A stretch of 64,000 bases of DNA from an uncultured Methanosarcinales archaeon. GTDB lineage: Archaea; Nanobdellota; Nanobdellia; Woesearchaeales; DATDXC01. A program made the position numbers and the translations under genes. Under the pieces are notes generated by a model. That model was not told the DNA's origin and made no database searches. It saw nothing but the letters and a program-made list of their open reading frames with translations. Below, one piece after another: positions 20,894 to 57,115 of this stretch; the first letter of the stretch is position 1, and the number at the start of each line of letters is the position of its first letter. The DNA lies in contig CAZDZV010000006.1 in the NCBI GenBank assembly GCA_964510025.1, positions 11,143 through 75,142 on the forward strand, read 5' to 3'.

Positions 20894-20937
20894 AAATCAG
20901 CCGATTATTGAAAAGTCTCTGCTAAAATAATCATAAG

Positions 20938-28598: not shown

Positions 28599-28612
28599 TC
28601 TGCAAGAAGAAA

Positions 28613-30303: not shown

Positions 30304-30309
30304 CATAAT

Positions 30310-32231: not shown

Positions 32232-33129
32232 TCTTGAAAAGAAAAAACCACTGGCGACAGTTATTGTACCCACATACAACCATGCCTGTTTCATCGAAGA
32301 TGCACTGGATAGCCTGCTGAATCAGAGCTATGAAGAAATTCAGATAATTGTCGTGGATGATGGCTCAACAGACCAGACAAGCAAGATTTTGACAAAATAC
32401 AAAAAAGACATTAAATATGTTTATCAAAAGAATTCAGGCCAGGCCGCTGCAATCAAAAAAGGCATAGGGTTGGCAAAAGGCACATATATCTTCATCTTAA
32501 ATGCTGATGATATGTTCATGGCAAATAAGATTGGCAAAGTTGTTTCAGTATTCGAATCCTGCCCGACGGTAACGCATGTCTCGCATCCTGTCCTGGAATG
32601 GGATGGAACATCTAGAAAAATAGAGCCTATACCCAGCCAGATATTGAATAAAGTAATCGATGGAAAAAGACTGTTAGAGTATTTTTACCTGAACAGGTTC
32701 TACGGCGGTGGATCTACCGTAGCTGGCAGAGCATCTATCTGGAAAGAAATCCATATTCCAAGGCAGGTTGATATGTTCATTGATGAATATCTGGCCATCT
32801 CATCTTTAAGAACCGGTTCAGGCTATTTTATAGGTACACCCCTCTCCATATACCGGATTCATGATTCCAACTATTCCAGAATCCCAATAGCCAGGAAGGC
32901 TCTAAGAAATATGAAGGCAAATAAGGCCATACTGGATCAGCTGGACGGTGAGATAAAAATAATGTATGAACTAAAAACAAGGATAGCATATCTGAAATAT
33001 AAGGAGATTATATGCAAAAAAGAGCTCGCGGATGTGATCTCTTTGTGGCAATTTCTATTTAGGCATAAGAGCCTGATGAGATGGAAGACAATCAAAAATT
33101 ATCGGATCCTGCATAGAACAGTCCTATGA
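32221..33129 (+). CDS. Family 2 glycosyltransferase
   Basis: ATVIVPTYNHACFIEDALDSLLNQSY ... IQIIVVDDGSTDQT ... NADD. Start moved to ATG 32221 (MKNSLEKKKPLATVIVP). Confidence 0.75.
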   Translation: MKNSLEKKKPLATVIVPTYNHACFIEDALDSLLNQSYEEIQIIVVDDGSTDQTSKILTKYKKDIKYVYQKNSGQAAAIKKGIGLAKGTYIFILNADDMFMANKIGKVVSVFESCPTVTHVSHPVLEWDGTSRKIEPIPSQILNKVIDGKRLLEYFYLNRFYGGGSTVAGRASIWKEIHIPRQVDMFIDEYLAISSLRTGSGYFIGTPLSIYRIHDSNYSRIPIARKALRNMKANKAILDQLDGEIKIMYELKTRIAYLKYKEIICKKELADVISLWQFLFRHKSLMRWKTIKNYRILHRTVL

Positions 33130-34034
33130 AAACCAGTGTAATCATCCCTAGCTATAGAAGACCGGCATGCCTGCAAAAATGCTTAAACGCATTGGAGAAC
33201 CAGTCAGTTGCGCCGGAAGAAATAATTGTGGTTCTCAGAAAAAATGATATAGAGACTGTCAGCATGGTAAAAAGAGAGAATTGCAGGGCTATTTATGTAA
33301 ATAGTCCTGGGCAGGTAGCTGCACTCAACACTGGATTAGATAATGCCTTAGGCGACATAATAGCGATTACAGACGATGATGCTGTACCCCACAAGGATTG
33401 GATTAAACTGATTGAAAGGCACTTTAGAAATGACAATGATTTGGCTGGACTCGGGGGGAAGGACAATCTTTACATCGATTACAGGTTGTTGAGGGGTAAA
33501 AAAAGGCTGGTTGGAAAGATCCGATGGTTTGGAAGCATAGTGGGAAATCACCATCTGGGATACGGGCGACCCAGGGAGGTGGACCATCTTAAAGGCGTCA
33601 ATATGAGTTTCCGCAAGGAAGCTATCAAAGATTTACGCTTCGATAAGCGGTTAAGGGGGCTGGGTGCCCAGGTTAGAAATGACACTGCCTTCTGCTTACA
33701 GCTCAAGAGAAAAGGCGCCAAGCTGGTATATGACCCAGAAGTTGTCGCTGACCATTTTCAGGCACCTAGATTTGAGAGGGATAAACGTGGAAATTTTGAC
33801 TATAGTGCTGTATTAGACGGTGCTTTTAACGAGACTCTTGTTCTATTAGAGTACCTCCCTTTCTTTGGAAAGATCTGCCACCTTTTTTTTGCCTTACTTA
33901 CGGGGAATATCTTCACCCCGGGCCTGATCCAGTTCATCCGAATCCTGCCAAGAGAAAAAAAAGATGCTGTTCATAGGTTTTTGGCTTCTTTGGAAGGCAG
34001 AAAGAAAGCCATTCTATTAACATGGATAAAGTAG
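33126..34034 (+). CDS. Family 2 glycosyltransferase
   Basis: TSVIIPSYRRPACLQKCLNALENQS ... ITDDDAVP. Confidence 0.7.
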   Translation: MKTSVIIPSYRRPACLQKCLNALENQSVAPEEIIVVLRKNDIETVSMVKRENCRAIYVNSPGQVAALNTGLDNALGDIIAITDDDAVPHKDWIKLIERHFRNDNDLAGLGGKDNLYIDYRLLRGKKRLVGKIRWFGSIVGNHHLGYGRPREVDHLKGVNMSFRKEAIKDLRFDKRLRGLGAQVRNDTAFCLQLKRKGAKLVYDPEVVADHFQAPRFERDKRGNFDYSAVLDGAFNETLVLLEYLPFFGKICHLFFALLTGNIFTPGLIQFIRILPREKKDAVHRFLASLEGRKKAILLTWIK

Positions 34035-35155
34035 CTTTCATAGTCAGCCACCCGATCCAGTATTTCTCTCCGCTATTTAGATTACTATCGAAAAAAATGG
34101 ACCTTACGGTCATTTATCTATCAGATGAAACATTGAAGACTTTCATGGATAAAGAATTTTCAGCAGCGATTAAGTGGGATATTCCTTTGTTAAAAGGGTA
34201 TAGGTACAAATTACTAAAAAATAATTCACCTGTCCATTCTGTTTCCAGGCCACCTTTTGGTTTATTAAATCTTGGGATTCTAAATGAGATAACCAATAAA
34301 AAATATGATTGCATAATAGTCCATGGGTGGCATTATGTAAGCCATTGGTTAGTCTACATCCTATGTATCCTTAGGCAGCTGCCTTTCTATATTAGGTCTG
34401 AATCTCCCCTAAACCAGGAAAAAACAAAGCCTGATTGGAAGATTTACATCAAAAAAATTTTACTTGGATATTTATTTCGTAGGGCAGCTGGTCTTCTGGC
34501 GATTGGAACTCAAAACAGGAGATTCTATGGGTTCTATGGGGTAGAAAATAAAAAAATCTTTTATGCACCTTATTCTGTCGATAATGATAGGCTTATGCCA
34601 AAAAAACGTAAAACTAAAAAAGACAAAATAGTAATCTTGTTTGTTGGGAAGCTTATAGAGAAAAAAAGGCCTATGGATCTGTTGCAGGCCTTTGAAAGGA
34701 TAAGTTATGAAACAAAAGCCCTGTATTTTGTAGGCGAAGGAAAAATGAAGAGACAGCTGCAAAAATATACGAAAAAAAATCATCTAAAAAACGTATTTTT
34801 CCCTGGATTTGTAAATCAGACAGCCCTCCCAGACTATTATAATATGGCGGATATATTTGTGCTTCCGTCTGGAATAGGAGAAACCTGGGGGCTGGTAGTA
34901 AACGAAGCAATGTGTTTTGGCCTCCCAGTTATAGTATCGGATATTTCAGGATGCAGCACAGATTTGGTAAAACAAGGCAAAAATGGCTACATATTTAAAA
35001 CAGGAGATATAGGACAATTGTCACGATATTTGAACATGCTTATAAAAAATAAGAAACTAAGAAACCAGATGGGATCTAGGTCTCTCAAAATCATAGGTCA
35101 ATTTAGCTGCAAAGCAGCAGCCGAAGGGATTGCTAAGGCTGTCAAGAGAAAATGA
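34022..35155 (+). CDS. Family 4 (GT-B) glycosyltransferase
   Basis: ADIFVLPSGIGETWGLVVNEAMCFGLPVIVSD (EX7E). Confidence 0.75.
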   Translation: MDKVAFIVSHPIQYFSPLFRLLSKKMDLTVIYLSDETLKTFMDKEFSAAIKWDIPLLKGYRYKLLKNNSPVHSVSRPPFGLLNLGILNEITNKKYDCIIVHGWHYVSHWLVYILCILRQLPFYIRSESPLNQEKTKPDWKIYIKKILLGYLFRRAAGLLAIGTQNRRFYGFYGVENKKIFYAPYSVDNDRLMPKKRKTKKDKIVILFVGKLIEKKRPMDLLQAFERISYETKALYFVGEGKMKRQLQKYTKKNHLKNVFFPGFVNQTALPDYYNMADIFVLPSGIGETWGLVVNEAMCFGLPVIVSDISGCSTDLVKQGKNGYIFKTGDIGQLSRYLNMLIKNKKLRNQMGSRSLKIIGQFSCKAAAEGIAKAVKRK

Positions 35156-36963
35156 AGCCATTTTTAAAAATAAGGAAAATTTTAGGACTTTTCAGAAAAC
35201 TCGAAATCCGCTTAGTTTACTTTGCGATCCCTATAGTTCTTTCGTTTCTAATAGCATTTTTTGAAGGCCTAAGCATCGGACTGCTAATACCCTTGGCTAA
35301 AGGGATTGTGGAGATGGAATTCAGTTTTGTGAGAAACCTTCCTTTTTTTAAGACAATCAATGACCTTTTCCCCCAGTTGCTAGCGCATAATAGGGCGATC
35401 TTTGTGACTCTTGTACTGATCATATTCATCTCAGCAGTCTTAAAAAATGTCTTCACCTATCTATCTTCCGTCATAGTAAGATATCAAATACGGCAAGCTG
35501 CGCATAAAGCAAGAAAGCACATATTCAATAGATATCTAAGTTTTGGCAAGCTTTTTTATGACAGGAATAATGAGGGCCATCTGCAAAGCATACTGCTCAG
35601 CTATACAAACTCGATCATAGGTCAGCTAGGCTCTATCTCCCACCTCATGAACGGCTCCGCTATGCTTCTTGTGTATTTTATTATGATGTTTTCCATATCC
35701 TGGAGATTGACTGTATTCATTCTGCTGATATTTCCGGTCCTGAACCTATCACTGAAATATCTGATTGCGAAGATAAAGAAAACCTCAAAGTTCTCGGCAG
35801 ATGCTAGGAAGAGGATGAACAGGGCAGTCTTCAACGTGCTTTCGTCTATACCGATTATAAAGGCATATACGAAAGAGGAGGAGGAAAAGAAGAACTTTGA
35901 CAAAATGAGCGAAGAAATGTCAAAATGGGACTTCAGTATGGATAAAAAATACGACCTGATAGGGCCAATGCAGGAAGTTATAACCTTGATAGCAGTACTG
36001 TTGGTAATCTCAGCCATGGCCTTCTTGTTTATAAAAACTAAGACAGGTGATATCTACGGGTTTGCCGTATTTTTTTATCTGTTGAAGAAATCCATGGGCA
36101 CGTTTGGTATCTTTAACAGCTTCAAGGGATCATTGGCAAAAGCCTCCGGACAGGTGCAAGAAATAATGCATATTCTCAGTGAGAAGAATAAGCATTATGT
36201 AAAAGGAGGAAGAAAAGAATTCAATGGATTGGAATCAGAGATTAAGCTGAGTAGGCTAAGCTTCCATTATGACTCAAAAGTTCCCATAATCAAGGACATA
36301 TCCTTCTCTATCAGAAAAGGAAAGATGACGGCTATTGTAGGGCCAACTGGCTCAGGTAAGACAACAATAATCAATCTTCTTCTGAGATTTTATGAATGCC
36401 CTGAAGGTTCTATATTTGTAGATGGGCGGGATATCAAGGAGTTCACGTTAAAATCGATAAGAAAGCATATGGCCCTTGTCAGCCAGGATACTATGCTTTT
36501 CAATGATACATTGAGAAAAAATATGACCTACGGAATAGACAGACAGGTGTCTCAGCAGGAGTTGGCTAGGATAGCAAAAAAGGCCCGGATCTATGACTAC
36601 ATCAAGAAGCTTCCGCGTGGCTTTGAAACGGTTATAGGTGATAGGGGAGTGCAGCTTTCTGGAGGTGAAAAGCAGAGGATATCGATTGCAAGAGCCCTCT
36701 TGAAGAACGCCGATATATTGATACTAGATGAAGCCACAAGCTCCCTGGACTCCAGAACAGAAAAGCTCATTCAGGAAGCTATCTACGAAGCTGTGAAGGG
36801 GAGAACCTCTATAGTCATCGCACACCGGCTTTCGACTATAAAGAACGCTGACAAGATTATCATCATTGAGAAAGGCAAGATAATTGAAAAAGGAAAACCC
36901 AAGGAACTGCTTGGAAAAAAAGGCAGATTCTATCAATATTGGCAGGAGCAGAAGTTTGAATAA
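35152..36963 (+). CDS. ABC exporter, fused permease-ATPase (MsbA/lipid-linked glycan flippase type)
   Basis: Six N-terminal TM helices. Walker A GPTGSGKTT, signature LSGGEKQRISIARAL, Walker B ILILDEATSSLD, H-loop IVIAHRLSTI. Confidence 0.8.
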   Translation: MKPFLKIRKILGLFRKLEIRLVYFAIPIVLSFLIAFFEGLSIGLLIPLAKGIVEMEFSFVRNLPFFKTINDLFPQLLAHNRAIFVTLVLIIFISAVLKNVFTYLSSVIVRYQIRQAAHKARKHIFNRYLSFGKLFYDRNNEGHLQSILLSYTNSIIGQLGSISHLMNGSAMLLVYFIMMFSISWRLTVFILLIFPVLNLSLKYLIAKIKKTSKFSADARKRMNRAVFNVLSSIPIIKAYTKEEEEKKNFDKMSEEMSKWDFSMDKKYDLIGPMQEVITLIAVLLVISAMAFLFIKTKTGDIYGFAVFFYLLKKSMGTFGIFNSFKGSLAKASGQVQEIMHILSEKNKHYVKGGRKEFNGLESEIKLSRLSFHYDSKVPIIKDISFSIRKGKMTAIVGPTGSGKTTIINLLLRFYECPEGSIFVDGRDIKEFTLKSIRKHMALVSQDTMLFNDTLRKNMTYGIDRQVSQQELARIAKKARIYDYIKKLPRGFETVIGDRGVQLSGGEKQRISIARALLKNADILILDEATSSLDSRTEKLIQEAIYEAVKGRTSIVIAHRLSTIKNADKIIIIEKGKIIEKGKPKELLGKKGRFYQYWQEQKFE

Positions 36964-38053
36964 TAAATTAAGAGTTCTCTTGATAGGCAATTATGCTGCC
37001 AATAATCAAAAAAGCATGCAAAGATTTGCCACTATGATGAAAAAAGGGCTGGAAAAAAGAGGGCATTATGCTATTTTAGCTATACCTACAGCGATTTTTG
37101 GAAAATTTTTTGCAGATACCAATAAGGGGCTCGGTAAATGGCTAGCATATATTGATAAGTTTATTGTTTATCCCTTCTATTTGATCAGACAAGCGAAAAA
37201 ATTCGACCTTGTGCATATTTGCGACCATGGTAATTCCATCTACTCGTTATTTACCGGAAGAACGCCGTGTGTGGTTACCTGCCACGACACAATGGCTATC
37301 AGATGCGCTTTAGGAAAGATAAAAGAAAATAAGCTTCATTTAACTGGAAGAATATTCCAGAAGCTGATAGCCTTCGGCATAAAAAAATCTGACTATGTCG
37401 TATGCATATCAAAAAAAACCAAATCGGATCTGCTAAAAATACTACGTATAGACAGGATTAGCTTGGTTTATAATGGACAGGTGTTTAAGCCGATGCCAAA
37501 AAAAGTATCAAAAAGATATCTCAGGAAGCTTAAAGTCAATATCCCTTACTTTCTGCATGTAGGCAATAACAATTGGTATAAGAACCGGATCGGCGTTTTA
37601 AAGATATTTAGCGATCTAGAACTGCCAGGTTACGGCTTGGTGATGGTGGGCGCTTCTTTTTCAAGGGGCATGAAGGATTTTGTAGCTAAACATAATTTAC
37701 CTGTAAGAGAAATCACATCAGCTGACGATAATGAGCTGGGGGCATTGTATTCTAATGCTGAAGCGCTGATATTTCCGTCTCTGGAAGAAGGTTTTGGTTG
37801 GCCTATAATTGAGGCCCAGGCATGCGGATGTCCTGTCTTCACCACTGACAGAAATCCGATGAAAGAGGTTGCAGGAGATGGCGCTATATATTTTCAGAAT
37901 CCCGAGAGCCACAGACAATGTGCGGATATTATTATCAATAATTTGGCGAAAGCAAGGAATAAAATAAAAAAAGGTTTAGAAAACGCTGCAAGTTTCAAAC
38001 CGAGTTACATGATAGATGGTTATATCAAAATCTACAAGTCATTGAAAAAATGA
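36884..38053 (+). CDS. Family 4 (GT-B) glycosyltransferase; start uncertain
   Basis: KLRVLLIGNY N-terminal beta1 strand and EGFGWPIIEAQACGCPVFTTD. The ORF-track ATG at 36884 overlaps the ABC gene by 80 nt. A TTG/TTA start near 36968-36982 or ATG 37016 is possible. Confidence 0.65.
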   Translation: MKKENPRNCLEKKADSINIGRSRSLNNKLRVLLIGNYAANNQKSMQRFATMMKKGLEKRGHYAILAIPTAIFGKFFADTNKGLGKWLAYIDKFIVYPFYLIRQAKKFDLVHICDHGNSIYSLFTGRTPCVVTCHDTMAIRCALGKIKENKLHLTGRIFQKLIAFGIKKSDYVVCISKKTKSDLLKILRIDRISLVYNGQVFKPMPKKVSKRYLRKLKVNIPYFLHVGNNNWYKNRIGVLKIFSDLELPGYGLVMVGASFSRGMKDFVAKHNLPVREITSADDNELGALYSNAEALIFPSLEEGFGWPIIEAQACGCPVFTTDRNPMKEVAGDGAIYFQNPESHRQCADIIINNLAKARNKIKKGLENAASFKPSYMIDGYIKIYKSLKK

Positions 38054-38170
38054 GGATTCTTTACATTGTCTAAATGAAGGATATAATAGCTCAAGCTACA
38101 ACAAGATGAAACTAAGTACGATACAAATTAAAGAAAGGATTGTAGGTTTGTTCAGTTTAGTAGGAACAAG

Positions 38171-38935
38171 ATGTTAATCAACATGCTAAAAAAGAGTGAA
38201 TATGTGCGAAAAAAATACCATGGCATAAAAGATTTTTTTTATGGCCTTAAATACTTTTCAGGAACTAAAAAAGGTCTAAAATACTTTATAGTTGTATGTC
38301 AAGCAAGGACAGGCAGTACATTATTGATGGACTTATTAGGTTCACACCCGAATATTAAAGTAGACCATCACAGCTTTTTTAAGATAGATAATTTGAAGCA
38401 TAAAATAACCCAGCAAAAAGCAAATACGCGTAAATTCTGCAGGGGATTCAAGTTTAGGTTGTACGATGATGGAAAGGAATATGATTTTAGCAAAATGTAT
38501 CAATTCTTTTGCTCTCTGGATAATGCAGATATTAAGATGATCCACCTAATCAGAAAAAACCAGCTAAGACAGTCCCTTTCCGCAGAAGTGGTAGACTATT
38601 ACAAGAAAATTGGATTGACAAGGCTTCATTCAAAAGATAAGAATCCTGAGATACCGAAAATAAAGGTAGATATCCAAAAGACGCTAAATCGGATTAATTA
38701 TTCAAGAAAGTTGCTAAAGGCAGAGAATGATCTGCTCAAGCATTTCCGCCATCATACAGTTAATTATGAAAAAGATCTTTTGCATTCAACCGACCATCAA
38801 AAAACATCAGACAAGATATTTGCATTTTTGGGCCTCCCCTCTGCTAAGGTCAGTTCAGATTATCGAAAGACAAGTATTGACAACCCATCAGAATATATTG
38901 ATAATTTTAATCAATTGAGGTTGCACTACGAATGA
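38171..38935 (+). CDS. Stf0-type sulfotransferase-like protein
   Basis: VVCQARTGSTLLMDLLGSHPNI (P-loop-like RxGSTxL) and IHLIRKNQLRQSLS resemble Stf0-family PAPS-binding blocks. Confidence 0.5.
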   Translation: MLINMLKKSEYVRKKYHGIKDFFYGLKYFSGTKKGLKYFIVVCQARTGSTLLMDLLGSHPNIKVDHHSFFKIDNLKHKITQQKANTRKFCRGFKFRLYDDGKEYDFSKMYQFFCSLDNADIKMIHLIRKNQLRQSLSAEVVDYYKKIGLTRLHSKDKNPEIPKIKVDIQKTLNRINYSRKLLKAENDLLKHFRHHTVNYEKDLLHSTDHQKTSDKIFAFLGLPSAKVSSDYRKTSIDNPSEYIDNFNQLRLHYE

Positions 38936-40059
38936 AAGTCCTGGAAGTGATATCATCACTGAATCCTAGAACAGGCGGCACTGCTGAATCCCTAAAGCAA
39001 CTGGAAAAGATACTGTCCAGCAAGCATACTATAGAAATACTCTGTCTTGATAAACCAAAATCTCCATGGCTAAGGGATTTCAAAAGCAAGATATATGCCT
39101 TGGGTCCAGCAATCACCAGATATGCATTTTCTAAAAGGCTTCTAGGTTGGCTAAGAAAGAATGCAGTCAGCTATGATTGCATTATAGTCAATGGCATATG
39201 GCAATATGTGGGTTTTGCTGTATGGCTCATCCTAAAAAATTCCGAAACACCGTATTTTATCTATGCACATGGAATGCTGGATCCTTGGTTTAAAAAAAAC
39301 TATCTTATCAAGCATTTAAAGAAGTCAATTTATTGGCCTATCCAATACAGAATACTAAAAGACGCAGAAGCGGTTGTTTTTAACTGCAAGGAAGAAGCCC
39401 GGTTAGCCTCAAAATCATTCTGGCCAAATAGATGGAATTCAAAAATAATTAGTCATGGCATCTTTAAGCCGCCTGTCAACAAATCTCATCTTGTTGCCGG
39501 CTTTTTGGACAGATACAAAATACCTAGAAACCAGAATTTAATCCTCTTTTTGGGACGCATACACGAAAAAAAAGGCATTGATAACCTGGTGAAATCATTC
39601 GCAGAACTTAGCTCCGATTACCGCTTAATCATTGCCGGTCCTGAGTCAGCCTACGGCAATAGGATGAAAAGGCTTGCAAAAAAACTCGGTATCAGCCACA
39701 AAATTACATGGACAGGGATGCTCGAAAACGACCTAAAATGGGGTGCTTTCTATGCATCAGATGCATTTATTCTTCCTTCTCATCAAGAAAACTTTGGGAT
39801 TGCAGTAGTAGAAGCTTTGGCATGTGGATTGCCTGTCTTGATTTCAGATAAGGTGAATATATGGAAGAAGATTTATGATTTCAGTGCGGGTTTTGTTGAG
39901 AATGATAGCCTTGAAGGAACTTCAAAATTGTTGAAAAGATGGCATCTAGCTAGTGAAGAGAAAAAGAAAAAGATGGCTAAGTCAGCGAAAATTTGTTTTG
40001 AGTCTAACTTTGATATAAACAAGAATATCAGCCAGTTGATTAGGCTTGTCAGTAAATGA
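38932..40059 (+). CDS. Family 4 (GT-B) glycosyltransferase
   Basis: ENFGIAVVEALACGLPVLISD. Confidence 0.7.
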   Translation: MKVLEVISSLNPRTGGTAESLKQLEKILSSKHTIEILCLDKPKSPWLRDFKSKIYALGPAITRYAFSKRLLGWLRKNAVSYDCIIVNGIWQYVGFAVWLILKNSETPYFIYAHGMLDPWFKKNYLIKHLKKSIYWPIQYRILKDAEAVVFNCKEEARLASKSFWPNRWNSKIISHGIFKPPVNKSHLVAGFLDRYKIPRNQNLILFLGRIHEKKGIDNLVKSFAELSSDYRLIIAGPESAYGNRMKRLAKKLGISHKITWTGMLENDLKWGAFYASDAFILPSHQENFGIAVVEALACGLPVLISDKVNIWKKIYDFSAGFVENDSLEGTSKLLKRWHLASEEKKKKMAKSAKICFESNFDINKNISQLIRLVSK

Positions 40060-41021
40060 ATGTGAAAAAAGACATCTCAATAGTCATCCCGACATATAAC
40101 GGCTCAAGGTACCTGCCCGAAGTGTTAAACGCTTTGAGGAATCAGGAAGGCCTAAAGGAGATATCCTGGGAGGTTATTGTCGTAGATAATAACAGCACAG
40201 ACACTACGCCGAAGATCGTCGAAGAATTTCAGAAAAAATGGGATATGGACAATAAATTAAGGTATCTTGTTGAAAAAAGACAAGGCGCAGCGTATGCGAG
40301 GGAAACTGGTGTAAGAAATGCAAAAAGCAAGATTATTGGGTTTCTTGATGATGATAATATTCCTGAGAAGAACTGGATCCTGGAAGCTTATAGATTTGGG
40401 TCTGAACATCATGAAGCAGGAGCATGGGGGAGTAGGATCAAAGCAAGATATGAAAAAATGCCGCCTGAAAATTTCGATAGCATAAAGATGTATTTTGCGA
40501 TTATGGAAAAAGGGGAAAATGCTTATTGTTCTGAAGCTAAAAAATTTGTCTTGCCCCCTAGTGCTGGTCTTGTGGTAAGAAAAGATATATGGCCCGCATC
40601 ACCTTTATTGCTAACTGGAAGAACAAAGGAAACATGGCTAGCTGGTGAAGATATAGAGCTATTAGTTAGAATACAGAATAAAGGCTATGGAATATGGTAC
40701 AATCCAAGGATGGAAATTACACATATAATACCTGCTGCAAGGCTTGAGCCAGAATATGCCATTAACTTGATGAAAGGGATTGGATTATGCAAATACATAA
40801 CCAGGATGTTGAGACAATATGTATTGGCTAGACCTGTGGCCATAGTGGGATATTGTATTTCAGATTTTTTAAAGATGATGAAATTTATGCTCAGGTTCCG
40901 AGCCAAAATAATAAAAGATGCTCTGCTGAAGGCTGAATTTTTTTTATATCTGTACAGTTTTTATAGCCCTTTTTATTTTTTATTTAGATACCCAAAAAAG
41001 TTTTTTCTGATAGGAAAATGA
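40056..41021 (+). CDS. Family 2 glycosyltransferase
   Basis: ISIVIPTYNGSRYLPEVLNALRNQE ... WEVIVVDNNSTDTT ... LDDDNIP. Confidence 0.75.
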   Translation: MNVKKDISIVIPTYNGSRYLPEVLNALRNQEGLKEISWEVIVVDNNSTDTTPKIVEEFQKKWDMDNKLRYLVEKRQGAAYARETGVRNAKSKIIGFLDDDNIPEKNWILEAYRFGSEHHEAGAWGSRIKARYEKMPPENFDSIKMYFAIMEKGENAYCSEAKKFVLPPSAGLVVRKDIWPASPLLLTGRTKETWLAGEDIELLVRIQNKGYGIWYNPRMEITHIIPAARLEPEYAINLMKGIGLCKYITRMLRQYVLARPVAIVGYCISDFLKMMKFMLRFRAKIIKDALLKAEFFLYLYSFYSPFYFLFRYPKKFFLIGK

Positions 41022-41833
41022 CAAAAATTAAAGATGCTGTTGATAAAGCATATATCATTTGTCATAGCTCATCCACTGAAGAATTATCCAAGAGTTTAAC
41101 AAAGAACAATTTAGATGTAGAAGAATTAAGACAAAAACCTAAAAAAAGTTGGAATAAATATTCAAACATATACAAATGCTTGCTTAATCACGAAAGGGCA
41201 TGGAAAAAAGCACTGAACAATGAATTTACATTGATAGTTGAAGAGGATTTTGTACCTGTTAGTAATTTTGGAGACTTTTCTTTACCATTTGATCCAAAAA
41301 AGGATTTTGGAATCTGCTGGATTTATTACTGCGGACCAAGGATTTATAGTGCTTCAGACACAGGCTATATAGAAGGTGGTGCAACTTCCCTAGTTGCATA
41401 TATAATAAACAAAAAAAGCGCAGCGCTTCTAATCGAATTTGCCAAAAAAATGAAAAAAACTATGAAGGGAAAGTATTATCCATTTGATTCAGATATAGAC
41501 GGTTATTTTATAAAGAAAGGATTGAAAAACTATATCGCTTTCAGAAACTATGGCGAGCATGGCGGGCTTCCGAATCCTGAACACAGGCAGAATAAAACAG
41601 GAAACCAAGGTATACACAGGGCTGATGTGTTGGCCGGAAAACTTGATTTTATGCCCCTTTATTCCAAGCACAATATCATTATATATATCGTTGTAAGGAT
41701 AAAGGCAAGAATCAAGGGACTAGTACGTTTATTCAGCGGAAGATATTTAAGGCCAAAGATCTTCTGCTCATCAAGCTTTCCGTTGAGGCTTTTGAAGTGT
41801 GCGATTAAAAGGCATTTGACATGGAACCTATGA
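41018..41833 (+). CDS. GT25-like (LPS-type) glycosyltransferase
   Basis: AYIICHSSST ... HERAWKKALNNEFTLIVEEDFVP parallels GT25 H..AW ... (I/L)EDD blocks. Confidence 0.4.
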   Translation: MTKIKDAVDKAYIICHSSSTEELSKSLTKNNLDVEELRQKPKKSWNKYSNIYKCLLNHERAWKKALNNEFTLIVEEDFVPVSNFGDFSLPFDPKKDFGICWIYYCGPRIYSASDTGYIEGGATSLVAYIINKKSAALLIEFAKKMKKTMKGKYYPFDSDIDGYFIKKGLKNYIAFRNYGEHGGLPNPEHRQNKTGNQGIHRADVLAGKLDFMPLYSKHNIIIYIVVRIKARIKGLVRLFSGRYLRPKIFCSSSFPLRLLKCAIKRHLTWNL

Positions 41834-42384
41834 AAGACTTGCTTAAAGGGACAGTTGCATCTGCCGGCCCAAGTTTTAGCTTGAGCAACAGGTTTAGAAG
41901 AGCTGTCTGGAATCTGGTATATCATGTTATGTTCAGGTTATCTCCGGTGTTTTTTCATGAGTGGCGCTCTATCCTGCTAAGGCTGTTCGGGGCAGAAATC
42001 GGCAAAGGCTGCCACATATACCCAAGAGCAGCAATATGGGCCCCGTGGAACCTTAAAACAGGTGATTTTGTAGGCATAGCCGATGATGTGAAGCTTTATA
42101 ACCAGGCAGAGATAGTCATAGGTGACCTCACAGTAATCTCACAAGGGTCCCATATATGTACCGGCACACATGATTATCAGAAAAAGGCGTTTCCGGTCAT
42201 CATCAAGCCAGTTACCATAGGAAAAAGGGCCTGGATATGCGCTGATGCATTCATACATCCGGGAGTCAGCATCGGCGAAGGGGCAGTTGTCGGAGCTAGA
42301 TCTGTTGTGACTAGAGATATTAAGAAATGGACAGTCTGCGCTGGAAATCCGTGCACTGAGATTAGGAAAAGAAATGTTATATAA
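41821..42384 (+). CDS. Hexapeptide-repeat acetyltransferase (WcaF/LbH family)
   Basis: Left-handed beta-helix repeats IGKGCHIYPRAAIWAPWNLKTGDFVGIADDVKLYN ... IGEGAVVGARSVV. Confidence 0.75.
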   Translation: MEPMKDLLKGTVASAGPSFSLSNRFRRAVWNLVYHVMFRLSPVFFHEWRSILLRLFGAEIGKGCHIYPRAAIWAPWNLKTGDFVGIADDVKLYNQAEIVIGDLTVISQGSHICTGTHDYQKKAFPVIIKPVTIGKRAWICADAFIHPGVSIGEGAVVGARSVVTRDIKKWTVCAGNPCTEIRKRNVI

Positions 42385-43222
42385 TCTTACTATAGTCATT
42401 CTCACATTCAATTCAGCAAGAACAATCAACGAAGTTGTTTCTTCATGCAGGCATTTGTCTGAAAAAATACTGGTTGTGGACTCATACAGCAAGGATGACA
42501 CTGTTAAGATTGCAAGGTCTCTCGGATGCAAAGTCCTGCAGCATACGTTCAAGGATTACTCGACGCAAAGGAACTGGGCGCAGCAGAAAGTAAGAACTCA
42601 ATGGGTTCTGCATCTCGATAGTGATGAGATAATCTCCAAGAAACTGGCTGACAGCATCCAGGCAGCTTTCTCAAAAAAATCAGATAATGACGGCTATCTT
42701 ATGAAAAGGCTTACTTATTTTATGGGCAAGCCAATCAGATTTGGCCACATGAACCCAAACTGGCACCTGAGGCTTTTTAAGGTCAAGACCGGATATTGTG
42801 AGGACAGGTTGTATGACCAGCATTTTATCGCAAAAGGCAATCTCGCAAGATTGGACGGCTACATATTGGATGTTCCCAAAAAATCTGTAGAAGAATGGAT
42901 AGATAATCATAATCGATGGTCGACAGCAGAAGCAGAGGAGCTCTTGTCTGGAAATTCTTTATGCAAGAGCCTGCCTGGGAAACTTAACAAGGATCCCAGA
43001 ATAAGGAAAAGGCTGATAAAGAATAATGTGTATTACAGGCTACCGCCGCTTGTCAGGCCTTTTATCTTCTTTGGTTACAGCTACATCGTGCGGCTGGGCT
43101 TTTTAGATGGACGGGCGGGATTTATATACAGCATACTCCAGTCTTTCTGGTTCCGGTTCCTGGTGGATGTGAAAATTCTAGAAAGGAAAATCTTTATAAA
43201 ATACGCTAGATTCAGGAGATAA
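42374..43222 (+). CDS. Family 2 glycosyltransferase
   Basis: LTIVILTFNSARTINEVVSSCRHLSEKILVVDSYSKDDT ... LDSDE. Confidence 0.7.
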   Translation: MLYNLTIVILTFNSARTINEVVSSCRHLSEKILVVDSYSKDDTVKIARSLGCKVLQHTFKDYSTQRNWAQQKVRTQWVLHLDSDEIISKKLADSIQAAFSKKSDNDGYLMKRLTYFMGKPIRFGHMNPNWHLRLFKVKTGYCEDRLYDQHFIAKGNLARLDGYILDVPKKSVEEWIDNHNRWSTAEAEELLSGNSLCKSLPGKLNKDPRIRKRLIKNNVYYRLPPLVRPFIFFGYSYIVRLGFLDGRAGFIYSILQSFWFRFLVDVKILERKIFIKYARFRR

Positions 43223-43223
43223 G

Positions 43224-44444
43224 ATGAAGTTAGTGGATGATAAAGGGAAAGTCTTGGGAAGGATAAACATATTTGATCTGATGATAGTCATACTGGTTTT
43301 TTTGCTTCTGTTGCAGGGGACTATCCATATAGCTAGGAACTGGACACTTTCCGAGCCTGAACAGGTTCTTGTTAAGATAAAAGGTGAGCTCTGCAATGTT
43401 GATTCCAGCCTGAAAACAAGAGATTGTGGCTCTTCATTGCCAGAATATTTTTACGACAATATCTACATCGGACAGGCTATGAGAAGCAAGGGCGAAATTA
43501 TAGCCAAGGTTGATAAGATAGAAGCCATAGGTGAAACAGAAGCCAAAAAGATTGTTCTCACGCTTGAGGTCAGGGCACAGCTTCAGGACAATGAGCTTAC
43601 CTTTCTGGGCCAAGAGCTGAAGATCAACAGAAGATTTGTATTCGCTACGCCGACGATTAATTTTGGGGTGAATGTCATATATCTTGACAGCAATATCATT
43701 GAGCAGGCAGCCGAGACCATAACCGATGCAACTGCAAACCGGCAAACCAGGATATATGATGGCTGGGATTCTGTCATAGGGGAGTTGTGCACTTTGGATG
43801 AGGCAGATCACGCAAAAGAATGTGGAATAGATATTCCGGACTGGTTTGTCAATCGTATCGAAAATCTGGGGACTATTGAAGATAAGAATGCGATTATCAA
43901 GGTTCAGGAGATAAGGCAGATGATGGTAGACCAGATGACAACTGTCATCATCCTTAACTTAACCACCTATGACAATGAAGCCAAAGAAAAGATGTTTCAG
44001 GGGGTACCTTTGAAGATAAACAATAGGCTGGTTGTAAAAAGTCCCCAAATTAATTTTGGGGTAAAGATATTGAATATCGGGACTGGGCTTCCTGAAGAAT
44101 CCAGGCTTCACGAAAAAACAATAATACTGAAAATAGAAAATCTGGAGCCGGAAATATTCAACAGTATACAGGAAGGCATGACAGAGAAAAACAACAACAA
44201 TGAAGTTATAGCTGAGATAGTTGGCAAGACAGTCCAGCCCCACATTTTGCTGTTGACTACAGAAGATGGCCAGCTGCTGACAGAAGAGCATCCGATAAAC
44301 AAGGATATCACCCTGGAGACCCTTATAAAAGCATCGAAATCCAGGGATTACTATTATAACGGGCAGCTCGTTAAGATCGGAAATCCCCTCACAGTAAAGA
44401 CCGATATTATGGATTTAAATGGAGAGATAATAGCGATATCTTGA
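43224..44444 (+). CDS. Hypothetical N-terminally membrane-anchored protein with internal duplication
   Basis: TM (IFDLMIVILVFLLLL). Repeated LKINRRFVFATPTINFGVNVIYL and LKINNRLVVKSPQINFGVKILNI modules. Confidence 0.3.
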   Translation: MKLVDDKGKVLGRINIFDLMIVILVFLLLLQGTIHIARNWTLSEPEQVLVKIKGELCNVDSSLKTRDCGSSLPEYFYDNIYIGQAMRSKGEIIAKVDKIEAIGETEAKKIVLTLEVRAQLQDNELTFLGQELKINRRFVFATPTINFGVNVIYLDSNIIEQAAETITDATANRQTRIYDGWDSVIGELCTLDEADHAKECGIDIPDWFVNRIENLGTIEDKNAIIKVQEIRQMMVDQMTTVIILNLTTYDNEAKEKMFQGVPLKINNRLVVKSPQINFGVKILNIGTGLPEESRLHEKTIILKIENLEPEIFNSIQEGMTEKNNNNEVIAEIVGKTVQPHILLLTTEDGQLLTEEHPINKDITLETLIKASKSRDYYYNGQLVKIGNPLTVKTDIMDLNGEIIAIS

Positions 44445-45595
44445 TTGAAGTGAATATTCTTACAAGGGATTTCTTCCCAGACTACAGTGCGGTGGCTAAA
44501 AAGATGACCGGGCTAGCAGAGGATCTTACAGCTGCCGGCATAGACGTTCAGGTATACACAGCTAATCCGCAGTATTACTGCAGAGAAAAGCCTGAAAAGC
44601 GCAGAAATATCAGAAGGGTTTTATGCACCTCGTTCGATAAGGATAATCTCTTATTGAGGGCCATTAATGAGGTTAGCTTTGGAATATCAATATTTGCTAT
44701 CTTGCTTTTTTCGAAAAAAAAGATGAATATAATCCCCTCTCTTCCATTTTCGCTTCAGCTCTCTGCTCTCCTTTTAAGGAAAATAAGAAACCAGGATTAC
44801 ATCATAATAAACTATGAGATTATGCCCGAACTTATGTGTTCCTCCGGTCTAATGTCATATGATGGCCCCTTCTTCCGGATGCTCAACAAGATAGCCAAGA
44901 AAGTGCTTGATAACGCCAGGTGCATTATTACTTTAACTGCATCTATGAGCAAAAAGCTGGAAAGCAAGGTCAGAAAAAAGATAGTGACTATCCCGAATTG
45001 GACTGACACAGATGTCTATTACCCCATCAAAAGAAAAGAAAACGAATTCTTGAGAAGAAACAAGCTTTCAGATAGCTTCGTTGTATCATACTCAGGTAAT
45101 TTCGGCAGGTACATGGATTTTGATACTGTACTTAAGGCTGCGGAGCTTTTGCCCCAGATAAGATTTCTTTTTATAGGTAATGGGGCGCAAAAGGGCAGAA
45201 TAACCAAGGCAGACAATATTTTTTATCATGATTATCTGCCAAACTCAAGGATCAATGAATCTCTGAATTCCGGAAATATAGCATTGGTGCTTACAAACCA
45301 GAAAGATGACGATTATGTTATGCCGAGCAAGATCCTTGACCTGATGGCTGCTGGAAGGCCAATAGTTGCTGTATCAAGAAATTCGGAGATTAAAAAGATA
45401 ATTGCCAGGTCAAGGAACGGGTTTGTTGTAAATCCTGGAGAACCAGATAGCCTAAAAAGAGCTATTCTGGCCCTGAAGAACGACAAAAAATTGCAGAAAG
45501 AAATGGGCAAAAACTCAAGGGATTATGCTGCTAGACATTTTTCCAGAAAGAAGATTACCGGGCAGTATGTTGAACTGCTGAAGAAAAATTTATAA
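44441..45595 (+). CDS. Family 4 (GT-B) glycosyltransferase
   Basis: GT-B C-terminal block ILDLMAAGRPIVAVSRNSEIKKII. Coupled to neighbours. Confidence 0.6.
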   Translation: MIEVNILTRDFFPDYSAVAKKMTGLAEDLTAAGIDVQVYTANPQYYCREKPEKRRNIRRVLCTSFDKDNLLLRAINEVSFGISIFAILLFSKKKMNIIPSLPFSLQLSALLLRKIRNQDYIIINYEIMPELMCSSGLMSYDGPFFRMLNKIAKKVLDNARCIITLTASMSKKLESKVRKKIVTIPNWTDTDVYYPIKRKENEFLRRNKLSDSFVVSYSGNFGRYMDFDTVLKAAELLPQIRFLFIGNGAQKGRITKADNIFYHDYLPNSRINESLNSGNIALVLTNQKDDDYVMPSKILDLMAAGRPIVAVSRNSEIKKIIARSRNGFVVNPGEPDSLKRAILALKNDKKLQKEMGKNSRDYAARHFSRKKITGQYVELLKKNL

Positions 45596-45617: not shown

Positions 45618-46229
45618 ATGGGCATTCTGAAAAGGGTTTTGGATTTTGGGATAGCTGCCATAGCTTTAGCTGTTTCTCTGCCGGTCTTCATCACAATTTC
45701 GGCCCTTATAGTGGCAGATTCAGGCTTCCCTGTTTTTTTTAGTCAGCGGAGGGTAGGCCATAGGCAGAAAAAATTTACCCTGTATAAATTTCGCACAATG
45801 GTTAAAGATGCCGAAAAGATCAAGCACAGGTACAAGAAGCTTGATTATACTGACGGGCCTGTTTTTAAGATTAGAAAAGATCCAAGATACACAAAAATAG
45901 GGCTTTTCCTTGCAAAGACGAGCTTGGATGAGCTACCTCAGCTTTTCAACGTCCTGAAAGGTGACATGTTCATTGTTGGGTTTAGGCCGCCTACACCTGA
46001 AGAGGTAAAAGAGTATAAAGAATGGCAGCTTGAGCGTTTTAAGGGCTATCCTGGGATTACATCTCTTTGGGCCATATCGGGGATGCACAATATAAGGTTT
46101 GATGACTGGATAAAGATGGATATAAAATACAGCAAAAAAGCCAATTTTTTTCTGGATATGAAAATAGTTGCAAAAACAGTCACAAAAATCATAGAAAACA
46201 TATATGCTTCACTTAAACACGGTCTGTAG
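45618..46229 (+). CDS. Bacterial-type monotopic phosphoglycosyltransferase (PglC/WbaP C-terminal, Bac_transf)
   Basis: 203 aa, single N-terminal re-entrant helix. RRVG...FTLYKFRTM, MFIVGFRPPTPEE (VGPRP block) and KPGITSLWAISG match the sugar-transferase superfamily signature. Confidence 0.8.
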   Translation: MGILKRVLDFGIAAIALAVSLPVFITISALIVADSGFPVFFSQRRVGHRQKKFTLYKFRTMVKDAEKIKHRYKKLDYTDGPVFKIRKDPRYTKIGLFLAKTSLDELPQLFNVLKGDMFIVGFRPPTPEEVKEYKEWQLERFKGYPGITSLWAISGMHNIRFDDWIKMDIKYSKKANFFLDMKIVAKTVTKIIENIYASLKHGL

Positions 46230-48004: not shown

Positions 48005-48018
48005 GCTGCACCCCCAGA

Positions 48019-52966: not shown

Positions 52967-52975
52967 TTCTTCACC

Positions 52976-55563: not shown

Positions 55564-55579
55564 TATTTCCCCAGTATAG

Positions 55580-57113: not shown

Positions 57114-57115
57114 AA

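Follow-up and report, generated by a model that had tools for sequence, protein, structure and literature searches.

A putative small monotopic phosphoglycosyl transferase in a bacterial-style glycan locus of a Woesearchaeota-like archaeon

Introduction

Archaeal N-glycosylation is initiated by AglH, a polytopic enzyme of the GPT family, and by AglJ and AglK, which are Dol-P-sugar synthases of the GT2 type. Their role parallels that of the phosphoglycosyl transferases, namely the first membrane-committed loading of a sugar or sugar phosphate onto a polyprenyl-type phosphate. Monotopic phosphoglycosyl transferases (monoPGTs) are regarded as specific to bacteria, where they control entry into glycoconjugate synthesis and are considered antibiotic targets. 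The small monoPGTs (SmPGTs), which initiate many surface polysaccharides of bacteria, have been described as "exclusively bacterial" (PMC11626204). Here we ask whether a gene at the end of a glycan locus on an archaeal contig encodes such an enzyme, what it might do there and where it came from. The analysis covers a 64-kb stretch of DNA, hereafter the window.

Results

The gene is an ATG-started open reading frame (ORF) at 45618..46229 (+ strand) and encodes a protein of 203 aa, hereafter the PGT. Its match to the Pfam family PF02397 (Bac_transf; E = 2.8e-58, 196.8 bits against a gathering cutoff of 27) aligns residues 5–192 with profile positions 1–178 of 179, that is, nearly end to end, and this sequence similarity is far beyond what could be attributed to chance. 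The NCBIfam models EPS_sugtrans (230 bits), EpsZ (197), WbaP (188) and WcaJ (178), all scoring below their full-length cutoffs, are covered by the PGT only in their C-terminal catalytic part. The AF2 model of the protein (pLDDT 94.6) matched only PglC (8E37/8G1N, E = 4e-15) and WbaP (8T53, E = 1e-10, rmsd 2.1 Å) at E ≤ 0.001 in a Foldseek search against the PDB. The SmPGT class comprises proteins of ~150–250 aa that consist of the catalytic core without extra domains (PMC11626204). The PGT has the catalytic core alone, aligned to WbaP residues 330–521 only; it begins at the predicted re-entrant helix, and Pfam gave no match to PF13727, the CoA-binding-like domain that large monoPGTs carry N-terminally together with a four-TM bundle. 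Sequence and structural model confirm the predicted product as an SmPGT with a complete monoPGT domain, and the PF02397 match and the PglC/WbaP fold bear out the original prediction of a small monotopic Bac_transf enzyme. By homology, the PGT would be monotopic and form a covalent Asp intermediate, in contrast to the polytopic AglH, which is unrelated in fold and mechanism. The PGT gene and a convergent wHTH gene share 21 nt. Scans for promoters and terminators near the PGT gene stayed at chance level, and Rfam and tRNA scans of the window gave no match.

The best sequence match is to the large monoPGTs WbaP, WcaJ and EpsZ (S. enterica WbaP, PDB 8T53, residues 330–521; E = 4e-32), with PglC slightly weaker (E = 1.5e-27). 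The PGT shares with the WbaP-type core an FK(I/L)xxDPR segment and a longer insert before it, both of which PglC lacks. It differs from the large enzymes in size (203 aa versus ~450–530 aa), in lacking their N-terminal four-TM and regulatory domains, in having FRPP rather than PRP, in the loss of two Arg and a Gln, and in its archaeal host. Its minimal architecture and size are those of Campylobacter PglC (8G1N/8E37/5W7L), the prototype small monoPGT, with which it is 36.5% identical. The re-entrant helix and core, the Lys-Arg pair, the helix-breaking Pro, the Asp-Glu pair and the equivalent of Asp169 are present in both proteins, whereas Arg88, Pro111, Gln141 and Arg145 of PglC are all replaced. 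The label "PglC-type", which had been attached to the protein, therefore describes its small single-domain architecture but not its sequence, which is nearer to WbaP and lacks the diNAcBac fingerprints. These fingerprints, which mark diNAcBac-specific PGTs, are a GLLLP loop, a five-residue aromatic box and a C-terminal extension (PMC10186338). The PGT has GPVF..R at the loop, matches two of the five box residues (E129, Y133, F161, I165 and nothing at F197) and has no extension. Genes for diNAcBac biosynthesis (PglF/PglE/PglD-type) were not found in the locus, nor were Epimerase/Polysacc_synt_2 or DegT-type families among the ~30 genes scanned at 16.3–46.2 kb. Since both fingerprints and biosynthesis genes are missing, a start with a diNAc-sugar, one of the options originally suggested, is unlikely: no dehydratase or aminotransferase genes were found, and the sole acetyltransferase of the locus is a WcaF-family O-acetyltransferase. 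A hexose-1-phosphate start appears more likely.

Secondary structure of the AF2 model and hydropathy predict a re-entrant membrane helix at residues 2–35 (45621..45722, +). The model has helices at residues 2–19 and 21–35 with a break at residue 20, the helix break being assigned to L21-P22 (nt 45678–45683), and Kyte-Doolittle values of at least 1.6 occur only at centres 10–33, which indicates a single hydrophobic segment. K5-R6 is the counterpart of PglC Lys7-Arg8, and P22 is invariant in the clade of related sequences described below; the Ser-Pro motif is known in a form with a branched-chain residue preceding Pro (PMC6133551). The predicted topology is thus that of a monoPGT, with a single re-entrant helix broken at Pro and an N-terminal Lys-Arg. 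The putative catalytic dyad, Asp104-Glu105 (45927..45932, +; AKTSLDE in the translation; D93-E94 in PglC), lies within SLDELPQ, matching the family motif S/N-L-D-E-L-P-Q. In a residue comparison of 37 clade sequences with 149 bacterial sequences, both residues of the dyad were invariant throughout (37/37 and 149/149). The conserved residues of the PGT are K5-R6, L21-P22, K57, R59, R90, D104-E105, R123 and D180, for which the PglC counterparts K7-R8, S23-P24, K59, D93-E94, R112 and D169 are listed.

The substrate-binding motifs are altered. The nucleotide-binding motif PRP (PMC10186338; P111-R112-P113 in PglC) appears as the variant G-F-R-P-P (45978..45992, +), so that in F122-R123-P124-P125 the Arg and the second Pro are retained and the first Pro is replaced. 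The VGFRPP block quoted in the original prediction is real (G121–P125), but its second motif was slightly misread (YPGITSLWAISG, not KPGITSLWAISG). At the first position of PRP, 139 of the 149 bacterial sequences have Pro and all 37 clade members have F or Y. The position of PglC Arg88 is A99 in the PGT (nt 45912–45914) and holds Arg in all 149 bacterial sequences versus 7 of the 37 in the clade. Further downstream, T-S-L-W-A-I-S-G-M-H (46059..46088, +) is the clade signature for bacterial T-G/C-L-W-Q-x-S-G-R-N. Within it, Gln141 of PglC becomes A152 (Gln in 146/149 bacterial sequences, A or V in 37/37 clade members), Arg145 becomes M156 (Arg in 145/149 versus 0/37, non-basic in the clade), and H157 is a His in every clade member and in none of the bacterial sequences. 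The signature of the clade accordingly consists of VG[F/Y]RPP for GPRP, Gln141→Ala, Arg145→non-basic and the invariant His, and most members also lack Arg88; the equivalents of both Arg88 and Arg145 are missing in 30 of 37 clade members and present in 145 of 149 bacterial sequences. Canonical GPRP and WQ..GR motifs were found in all 79 named bacterial genomes and on one contig with bacterial context (L088).

In PglC, Arg88 and Arg145 are the UndP-binding arginines; Arg145 contacts the UndP phosphate, and its replacement (R145A/Q) lowers activity 100–200-fold (PMC10519829). The PGT thus lacks the basic residues that bind polyprenyl phosphate in PglC, having A99 and M156 instead, and across the clade the residues known from PglC to bind the nucleotide and the polyprenyl phosphate are, judging from the alignment, remodelled. 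With these arginines lost, the PGT could be weak, use another acceptor or rely on compensation by K100 and H157. The other invariant basic residues, K57, R59, R90, R123 and R140, are fully conserved, like the Asp-Glu dyad, and the 41 invariant columns of the clade alignment argue for purifying selection.

The PGT is the last of ~30 co-directional genes (~17.0–46.2 kb, all features given here on the + strand), most of them glycan-related, and it closes a glycan locus on the 3′ side, as originally described. The 28-kb locus comprises a Wzy_C protein, a HepA/MsbA-like ABC exporter, 14 glycosyltransferases (GTs), three sulfotransferases and a WcaF acetyltransferase. By gene content the whole locus is bacterial in style, with EPS/O-antigen parts throughout rather than the Agl-type set that an archaeal glycan locus, as first proposed, would imply. 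A Wzy_C-domain membrane protein of the O-antigen polymerase/ligase/O-OTase family (18715..20118; Pfam E = 1e-7, 32.3 bits, barely above the cutoff of 31.7) lies at the 5′ end, preceded by a PHP-family phosphoesterase (17879..18718; Pfam PHP) that resembles pAp phosphatases (NCBIfam 3′,5′-nucleoside bisphosphate phosphatase, 240.7 bits, below the cutoff of 400) and may remove pAp that the sulfotransferases form as a by-product. The body of the locus (20105..43222; Pfam, NCBIfam) encodes eight GT2 enzymes (one weak), five GT4 enzymes, the three sulfotransferases (23547–24194, 29434–30303 and 38171–38935), one Npun_R2821/2-family protein and several ORFs without a family match. It also includes a fused TMD-NBD ABC exporter (35152..36963; Pfam ABC_membrane and ABC_tran), a candidate flippase or exporter of lipid-linked glycan that scores 504 bits with the HepA family, 422 with MsbA and 246 with PglK, all below the equivalog cutoffs, and the WcaF-family polysaccharide O-acetyltransferase (41821..42384; PRK10502, 195.4 bits, above the cutoff of 192; Pfam Hexapep). 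A DUF4330 membrane protein (43224..44444; Pfam E = 9.7e-21) follows, and 22 nt upstream of the PGT gene ends a GT4 glycosyltransferase resembling the WcaI family (44441..45595; Pfam Glycos_transf_1, E = 1.7e-15; NCBIfam WcaI, 146 bits, below the cutoff of 276).

No other initiating enzyme was seen by Pfam in the locus. Among the ORFs scanned in the 64-kb window, which leave aside several at its edges, we detected no homologues of AglH, AglJ or AglB and no gene for lipid-carrier synthesis; apart from a scanned 848-aa LamG protein, no listed ORF of the window is of typical AglB size. On other contigs, too, the PGTs of the clade lie within clusters of GT, ABC, Wzy_C, WecG or Wzx genes: Wzy_C proteins accompany them in L087 and L089, and the DUF4330 protein recurs in L087 and L090.

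The remodelled binding sites could mean that the fold was kept and the job changed, the protein using another lipid or a non-lipid acceptor or persisting as a catalytically crippled scaffold. The replacement of Pro111 by F and of Gln141 by A and the loss of two arginines that matter experimentally in PglC (PMC10519829) favor such a change. We nevertheless regard it as unlikely, given the fully conserved dyad and remaining basic residues, the strong conservation across the clade, the location of the gene, typical of an initiating PGT, among GT, exporter and Wzy_C genes at no fewer than six loci, the lack of a second initiating enzyme in the locus, and the same substitutions in a relative from Patescibacteria that likewise adjoins a Wzm/Wzt-type transporter. 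A functional, priming SmPGT remains our preferred reading.

The flanks of the locus carry archaeal markers, as expected from the original assignment of the DNA to an archaeal genome. Upstream lies aIF5B (11250..13007, −; NCBIfam archaeal IF-2, 807 bits), whose nearest named homologues are from Woesearchaeota/Nanoarchaeota (65–71% identity; other metagenome matches up to 75%). Downstream are the archaeal riboflavin synthase RibC (47537–48004, −; ribC_arch, 177.8 bits, cutoff 100.55) and the CTP-dependent riboflavin kinase RibK (48019–48657, −), which best matches PRK14165 (wHTH/riboflavin kinase, 202 bits, cutoff 279) and then ribK_Meth (110.7 bits, cutoff 168), both below cutoff. By these marker sequences the contig is archaeal on both flanks, with a Woesearchaeota-like (DPANN) host.

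We recovered ~50 sequences of the clade, and the six lineages that could be classified are all on archaeal contigs. The bacterial host that is part of the SmPGT description does not apply to the PGT contig, nor to L084 (ribosomal L21e and RpoF/Rpb4), L083, L085 and L002 (thermosome; L002 is an NCBI "archaeon" MAG) or L089 (TFE, RpoL, a RadA-like protein and an ATP-dependent DNA ligase). L090 carries DUF1616, a weaker archaeal marker. The contigs L082, L086 and L087 have no decisive domain marker; L082 and L086 share with L084 a PGT-adjacent protein (59% and 41% identity, respectively). Pfam scans of the neighbors of three loci with a partial signature (L054, L138 and L148) yielded no domain-diagnostic genes, and the FRPP signature was in none of the 80 metagenome loci listed by a clade-profile scan, whose patterns were generic and uninformative on host range. 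A pattern search gave more than 600 matches; of the 80 species-representative genomes that matched best, 79 are bacterial and one is archaeal. The FRPP motif occurs in only four of the 150 best among 78,740 family representatives (50% identity), a search that returned mostly tandem two-domain bacterial PGTs and few clade members and informs on the smallness of the clade alone. The sequences indicate a clade that is small and established in DPANN-like archaea, and its presence on several archaeal contigs shows that the PGT is not a one-off acquisition.

The closest bacterial relatives that were verified are small PGTs of Patescibacteria (CPR), P0039 and P0040 (JBHPGZ010000004.1; 51% identity). 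Like the clade, they have Ser at the Arg88 position, T-S-x-W, the G-x-His signature and a length of ~200 aa, and they adjoin glycan ABC-transporter genes; unlike the clade, they keep the canonical GPRP, and their contig carries the bacterial rpmH-rnpA-yidD-yidC-jag operon. Whether they fall within the archaeal clade or next to it is poorly supported (20–28% bootstrap). The closest bacterial proteins reach at most ~51% identity to the PGT, versus 54–61% for proteins on other archaeal contigs. At 47–51% identity to the nearest bacterial catalytic domains, compared with 38% between PglC and WbaP, the clade would fall inside bacterial diversity. The neighbor-joining (NJ) tree, which has query-biased sampling and no outgroup so that the direction and number of transfers are not readable from it, groups the clade with five partial-signature relatives at 72% bootstrap; support along the backbone is low, at 12.5% for the split that holds FRPP sequences only and 28% once the three nearest relatives are included. 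NJ distances are 0.81 to the nearest bacterial sequence, 1.21 to WbaP and 1.37 to PglC, the largest among non-clade sequences being 1.67. A genuine Patescibacteria genome is among the nearest partial-signature relatives, and Patescibacteria sequences interleave with the clade in this tree. The outcome lies between an archaeal-specific lineage and a nesting of the PGT among bacterial sequences: the PGT belongs to a clade found on several archaeal contigs, and this clade, joined by a small number of relatives that are bacterial or unplaced, lies within the much larger bacterial diversity and not outside it.

A deep vertical lineage of archaeal monoPGTs, whose similarity to bacterial enzymes would reflect ancestry before the split of the domains, would account for the coherence of the clade, its own invariant signature and its position near the midpoint root of the query-biased NJ tree. 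We consider it quite improbable in view of the tiny size of the clade, the single archaeon among the best-matching species representatives, the position inside bacterial diversity suggested by the identities and the interleaved Patescibacteria sequences. The clade probably arose when a WbaP/EPS-type catalytic core was passed between the domains long ago, and its nearest relatives include Patescibacteria-like sequences.

That this particular genome recently took up the single gene, or the 3′ module, from a bacterium is very unlikely. The family is overwhelmingly bacterial and the specialist literature calls it exclusively so, and the codon-usage z of the PGT gene (2.4) is above zero, but this value lies within the leave-one-out range of the housekeeping genes (−0.9 to 3.8), GC (0.402) and GC3 (0.431) are also in the housekeeping range, and the neighboring GT4, DUF4330, ABC and Wzy_C genes have z ≤ 1.2. 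The composition comparison thus gave no sign of acquisition. The higher identities on other archaeal contigs and the clade-specific substitutions, found in none of the 149 bacterial sequences compared, also speak against it. Within the locus, the stretch at 20.1–41.8 kb has low GC3 (mostly 0.26–0.40), with host-like values for the GT2 gene at 33126 and for the ABC exporter; codon usage of two genes in this stretch was compared with the core and gave z of 4.6 and 5.8. As far as sequence can tell, nothing points to a recent transfer of the PGT gene, and that reading is already largely refuted. Of the horizontal acquisition originally inferred, the bacterial origin of the family stands as the most economical reading, but a recent transfer does not, given the host-like composition and the modest bacterial identity. 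Finally, an assembly or binning artefact that fused a bacterial fragment to an archaeal contig is scarcely conceivable: although the source is a metagenome assembly and two contigs, one of 81.7 kb (NCBI) and one of 1.7 kb (Logan), are the only records of the exact protein, archaeal markers flank the locus on both sides within a single 64-kb stretch, the PGT–wHTH junction recurs in an independent assembly (run SRR7048224), and five more contigs from other samples and three lineages carry clade PGTs beside archaeal hallmark genes.

Discussion

Starting from the observed domain, fold, catalytic residues, archaeal host, locus content, clade membership and signature substitutions, we consider it likely that a Woesearchaeota-like (DPANN) archaeon possesses a functional SmPGT, derived from an old inter-domain transfer, that primes a bacterial-style glycan pathway. 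From homology and gene content we infer the activity, sugar, lipid carrier, order of steps and final acceptor as follows. The PGT would be seated in the cytoplasmic leaflet via its one re-entrant helix, and Asp104-Glu105 would take a sugar-1-phosphate, most likely of a hexose rather than diNAcBac, from a UDP-sugar and pass it to a polyprenyl (dolichyl-type) phosphate, yielding a lipid-PP-sugar primer. The fourteen GT2/GT4 transferases would extend the primer, and the three sulfotransferases and the WcaF-type O-acetyltransferase would decorate the glycan, which the HepA/MsbA-like ABC exporter would carry across the membrane and the Wzy_C protein may polymerise or ligate to a surface acceptor.

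A bolder and doubtful extension is that some ultra-small archaea, perhaps CPR bacteria too, prime their surface glycan with a monoPGT whose lipid-phosphate site was rebuilt to load another carrier, such as an alpha-saturated dolichyl-type or a host-scavenged polyprenyl phosphate. The observations behind it are the loss of Arg88 and Arg145, the gain of the invariant His and the change from PRP to FRPP. If true, this would give Archaea their first glycan pathway started by a monoPGT and would amount to a natural experiment on how the acceptor is recognised. Adaptation to archaeal lipids was considered as an explanation of the lost arginines and given less weight, because a genuine Patescibacteria relative has the same losses.

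DPANN archaea depend on cell–cell contact and surface structures. The coherent group of archaeal SmPGTs indicates that polysaccharide pathways of the bacterial kind, primed by a PGT, are active in these organisms or are at any rate maintained by selection, and the clade would be a concrete case of gene traffic between CPR bacteria and DPANN archaea. Because its members have replaced the residues that hold undecaprenyl phosphate in PglC, the clade may also serve as a test case for lipid acceptor recognition and for archaeal dolichyl-type carriers.

Identity and fold of the phosphoglycosyl transferase

The open reading frame at 45618-46229 (+ strand) has an ATG start and encodes 203 aa, with boundaries exactly as originally predicted, and is matched over its whole length by Pfam PF02397 (Bac_transf; E=2.8e-58, 196.8 bits against a cutoff of 27). 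The previously reported VGFRPP block is present in the translation; a second motif, quoted as KPGITSLWAISG, reads YPGITSLWAISG. In NCBIfam, the protein's matches to the EPS_sugtrans, EpsZ, WbaP and WcaJ models are confined to their C-terminal catalytic part, and all scores lie below the full-length cutoffs, consistent with its lack of the N-terminal domains of those models. The solved structures that it matches best in sequence are WbaP catalytic domains (8T53, E=4e-32), with C. concisus PglC (8G1N, E=1.5e-27) slightly behind.

The protein contains a single hydrophobic segment (residues ~8-35), and its AlphaFold2 model, built with 34 homologues as input (mean pLDDT 94.6), has helices at residues 2-19 and 21-35 with a break between them. 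Foldseek comparison of this model with the PDB yielded significant matches only to PglC (E=4e-15) and WbaP (E=1e-10), the latter superposing with an rmsd of 2.1 Å over 191 columns. In the alignment to PglC, Lys7-Arg8, Lys59, the catalytic Asp93-Glu94, Arg112 and Asp169 correspond to K5-R6, K57, D104-E105, R123 and D180, respectively, and the helix-breaking Pro24 corresponds to P22, which is preceded by Leu; a branched-chain residue before the proline is a documented variant of the Ser-Pro motif (PMC6133551). Taken together, the residue equivalents, the model and the Foldseek matches indicate that this gene product is a small monotopic phosphoglycosyl transferase (monoPGT) by architecture and fold.

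To this extent the designation "PglC-type" in the original prediction holds; it probably does not extend to the sugar specificity of PglC. Three features distinguish the diNAcBac-specific PGTs, namely a GLLLP loop, an aromatic box of five residues and an extension at the C-terminus (PMC10186338). In contrast, the loop of the window protein differs from GLLLP, the aromatic-box positions are occupied by E129, Y133, F161 and I165 with the F197 position empty, and the extension is absent, whereas an FKIxxDPR segment and the long insert preceding it are WbaP-type features. No diNAc-sugar dehydratase or aminotransferase was found in the glycan locus, the sole acetyltransferase of which is a WcaF-family O-acetyltransferase (195.4 bits against the NCBIfam cutoff of 192), so that the proposed diNAc-sugar start is unlikely. 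Given also the WcaI-like GT4 encoded directly upstream, hexose-1-phosphate would be the better guess for the start of the pathway.

A bacterial-style glycan locus in an archaeal chromosome

Archaeal genes flank the glycan locus on either side. Upstream, the aIF5B gene (11250-13007) scores 807 bits to the archaeal IF-2 equivalog, and its nearest named homologues are all from Woesearchaeota, Nanoarchaeota or Nanoarchaeia (65-71% identity), with unnamed metagenome matches reaching 75%. Downstream lie genes for an archaeal riboflavin synthase RibC (above cutoff) and a CTP-dependent riboflavin kinase. Furthermore, the junction between the PGT gene and the convergent wHTH gene, which shares 21 nt with the PGT 3' end, recurs in an independent Logan assembly of run SRR7048224. 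Thus, a chimeric or mis-binned contig is very unlikely. The downstream riboflavin cluster (46609-48657, - strand) comprises RibH (lumazine synthase), RibC, the kinase, which is fused to a wHTH domain, and a 174-aa ORF without a family match; these biosynthesis genes are notable because DPANN-like genomes are usually described as biosynthetically poor.

The glycan locus, as delineated with Pfam and NCBIfam, spans 17.9-46.2 kb on the + strand, and the PGT gene is the last in a run of ~30 co-directional genes. However, the locus is not an archaeal Agl locus with a foreign cap: no homologues of AglB, AglH or AglJ were found among the window ORFs scanned, and the gene content is bacterial in style, as in a polysaccharide or O-antigen-like locus, within a chromosome that is archaeal. 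It encodes eight GT2 (one weak) and six GT4 glycosyltransferases, three sulfotransferases (starts at 23547, 29434 and 38171), a Wzy_C protein barely above the Pfam threshold, a fused ABC exporter (35152-36963; HepA family 504 bits, MsbA 422 and PglK 246, all below cutoffs), an Npun_R2821/2-family protein (26088-26915; 264 bits against a cutoff of 250) and, at the 3' end, the WcaF acetyltransferase, a DUF4330 protein, the WcaI-like member of the six GT4 enzymes and the PGT. Heading this sulfotransferase-bearing locus is a PHP phosphoesterase (17879-18718), with 3',5'-nucleoside bisphosphate (pAp) phosphatase as its best NCBIfam match (240.7 bits, below the cutoff of 400); this enzyme may clear the pAp that PAPS-dependent sulfation yields as a by-product. 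Cyanobacterial EPS families are the best matches for several locus proteins, including the Npun_R2821/2-family protein and the HepA-family exporter, along with HpsU-like acetyltransferase matches and a HepC match for the PGT, which hints at a possible source of parts of the locus. Two same-strand neighbours, 22655-23683 and the sulfotransferase gene 23547-24194, overlap by 137 nt, which may reflect a mis-called sulfotransferase start or upstream ORF end, or a frameshift.

The originally proposed comparison of base composition and codon usage with core genes shows no sign of a recent arrival of the PGT gene, since its GC3 (0.431, with GC 0.402) falls within the range of the housekeeping genes (GC3 0.36-0.55) and its codon usage is likewise within the core range (z=2.4, against -0.9 to 3.8 for ten core genes in leave-one-out comparisons, under a null of synonymous codons drawn from core-gene usage). 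The neighbouring GT4 and DUF4330 genes and the ABC and Wzy_C genes are similarly host-like (z <= 1.2). The centre of the locus (20105-41833) deviates from both ends and the exporter, with a low GC3 (mostly 0.26-0.40) and z of 4.6 and 5.8 for the two genes tested; the locus may thus be a mosaic whose middle part is exchangeable, comparable to bacterial O-antigen or capsule loci. Separately, a low-GC island at 52037-58977 (GC 0.27-0.38, GC3 0.21-0.35) encodes a DpnII endonuclease, a Dam-type D12 methyltransferase, an AAA_15 ATPase, an N6_N4 methyltransferase and two Phage_integrase proteins. Its codon usage is far from that of the core genes (z=7.3 for the DpnII gene), so it is clearly foreign, and it looks like a mobile restriction-modification/defence island.

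A distinct clade on archaeal contigs

The small monoPGT family has been described as "exclusively bacterial" (PMC11626204), and the superfamily as "exclusively prokaryotic", in two recent papers from the main laboratory of the field. No account of archaeal monoPGTs turned up in full-text searches that paired PGT terms with DPANN or archaea, and public databases already contain such proteins auto-annotated as "sugar transferase [archaeon]". Bacterial genes in DPANN genomes are commonplace.

Among 5.8 billion clustered proteins, the closest relatives of the window protein are ~35 metagenomic proteins of ~200 aa (50-64% identity), the only organism-bearing name among which is "sugar transferase [archaeon]". 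Of the 80 best species-representative genomes, that archaeal MAG ranked first (51%), and the other 79 were bacteria (<= 47%), mostly with large WbaP-like proteins. The clade is thus small: only four of the 150 best among 78,740 family representatives carried the FRPP motif, and ~50 clade sequences were recovered overall.

In an alignment of 199 sequences, including 37 from the clade and 149 from bacteria, a signature (window/PglC numbering) cleanly divides the close relatives of the window protein from all others. At F122/P111, Pro is found in 139 of 149 bacterial sequences and Phe or Tyr throughout the clade (37/37); at A152/Q141, Gln in 146/149 gives way to Ala or Val in 37/37; His at H157/N146 is universal in the clade (37/37) and absent from this bacterial set (0/149); Arg occurs at M156/R145 in 145/149 bacterial and 0/37 clade sequences, and at A99/R88 in 149/149 and 7/37. 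Canonical motifs were found in every named bacterium and in L088, a contig with heptosyltransferases and Wza. A few intermediate sequences keep GPRP, yet have Ser at the Arg88 position and G-x-His; one of these, P0039, adjoins rpmH-rnpA-yidD-yidC-jag and is a genuine Patescibacteria gene.

Hosts of the clade were assigned from flanking genes, covering six lineages, and all contigs with domain-diagnostic genes are archaeal: L084 carries ribosomal protein L21e and RpoF; L083, L085 and L002 a thermosome; and L089 TFE, RpoL, a RadA-like protein and an ATP-dependent DNA ligase. L090 encodes DUF1616, a mainly archaeal family, and L082 and L086 have a PGT-adjacent protein in common with L084 (59% and 41% identity). 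On L087, no decisive domain marker was found.

In three clade loci (window, 43224-44444; L087, 4242-5030; L090, 7932-9383), a gene for a DUF4330 protein precedes that of the PGT, at a distance of one or two genes in the window and in L090 and of seven in L087; this protein may be a conserved partner. Several archaeal contigs encode large proteins (480-850 aa), mostly with the concanavalin-like Laminin_G_3 domain, next to clade PGTs or in their vicinity (L084, 5511-7436 and 8200-10125; L082, 8448-9884 and 10644-12587; L086, 11743-13197; L089, 16117-18099; and the 848-aa LamG/MopE protein at 228-2774 of the window); the L082 and L086 copies with 59% and 41% identity to those of L084 have no recorded Pfam match. 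The large proteins could be the glycosylated surface proteins. One relative, P0316 (582 aa), combines an FRPP-signature PGT domain (residues 1-197) with a ~380-aa C-terminal region of no assigned function and would be a bifunctional clade member.

Origin and acceptor site

In a neighbour-joining tree (158 sequences, query-biased sampling, 200 bootstraps, weak backbone support), the clade and five intermediate relatives group at 72%, with tighter groupings around the clade at only 12-28%. The mean Kimura distance within the clade is 0.69; from the window protein, the nearest bacteria are at 0.81, WbaP at 1.21 and PglC at 1.37, and bacterial sequences differ among themselves by up to 1.67. Sequence identity is 36-37% between the window protein and either PglC or WbaP, and 38% between the latter two. 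Our reading of this weakly supported tree is that the clade is probably nested in bacterial diversity, in line with the proposed horizontal acquisition; the gene itself, however, belongs to a clade whose age was apparently sufficient for it to diversify among DPANN-like archaea. CPR bacteria appear among the nearest relatives outside the clade.

Simulation and mutagenesis of PglC have shown that undecaprenyl phosphate is held at its phosphate by Arg88 and Arg145: R145A/Q lowers activity 100-200-fold, and R88Q leaves <30% even at a tenfold enzyme concentration (PMC10519829); PRP is described as the nucleotide-binding motif (PMC10186338). Both arginines are missing in 30 of 37 clade members, including the window protein, and present in 145 of 149 bacterial sequences. 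These losses might reflect a different lipid carrier; that a Patescibacteria relative has them too speaks against their being simply an adaptation to archaeal lipids. The catalytic dyad and the remaining basic residues are intact across the clade, which has 41 invariant columns; on this basis we think that the enzyme is active and that its acceptor site has been rebuilt. Within this site, the lost arginines may be compensated by His157, which is invariant, and by the basic residue at position 100, a Lys in the window protein that varies among clade members.
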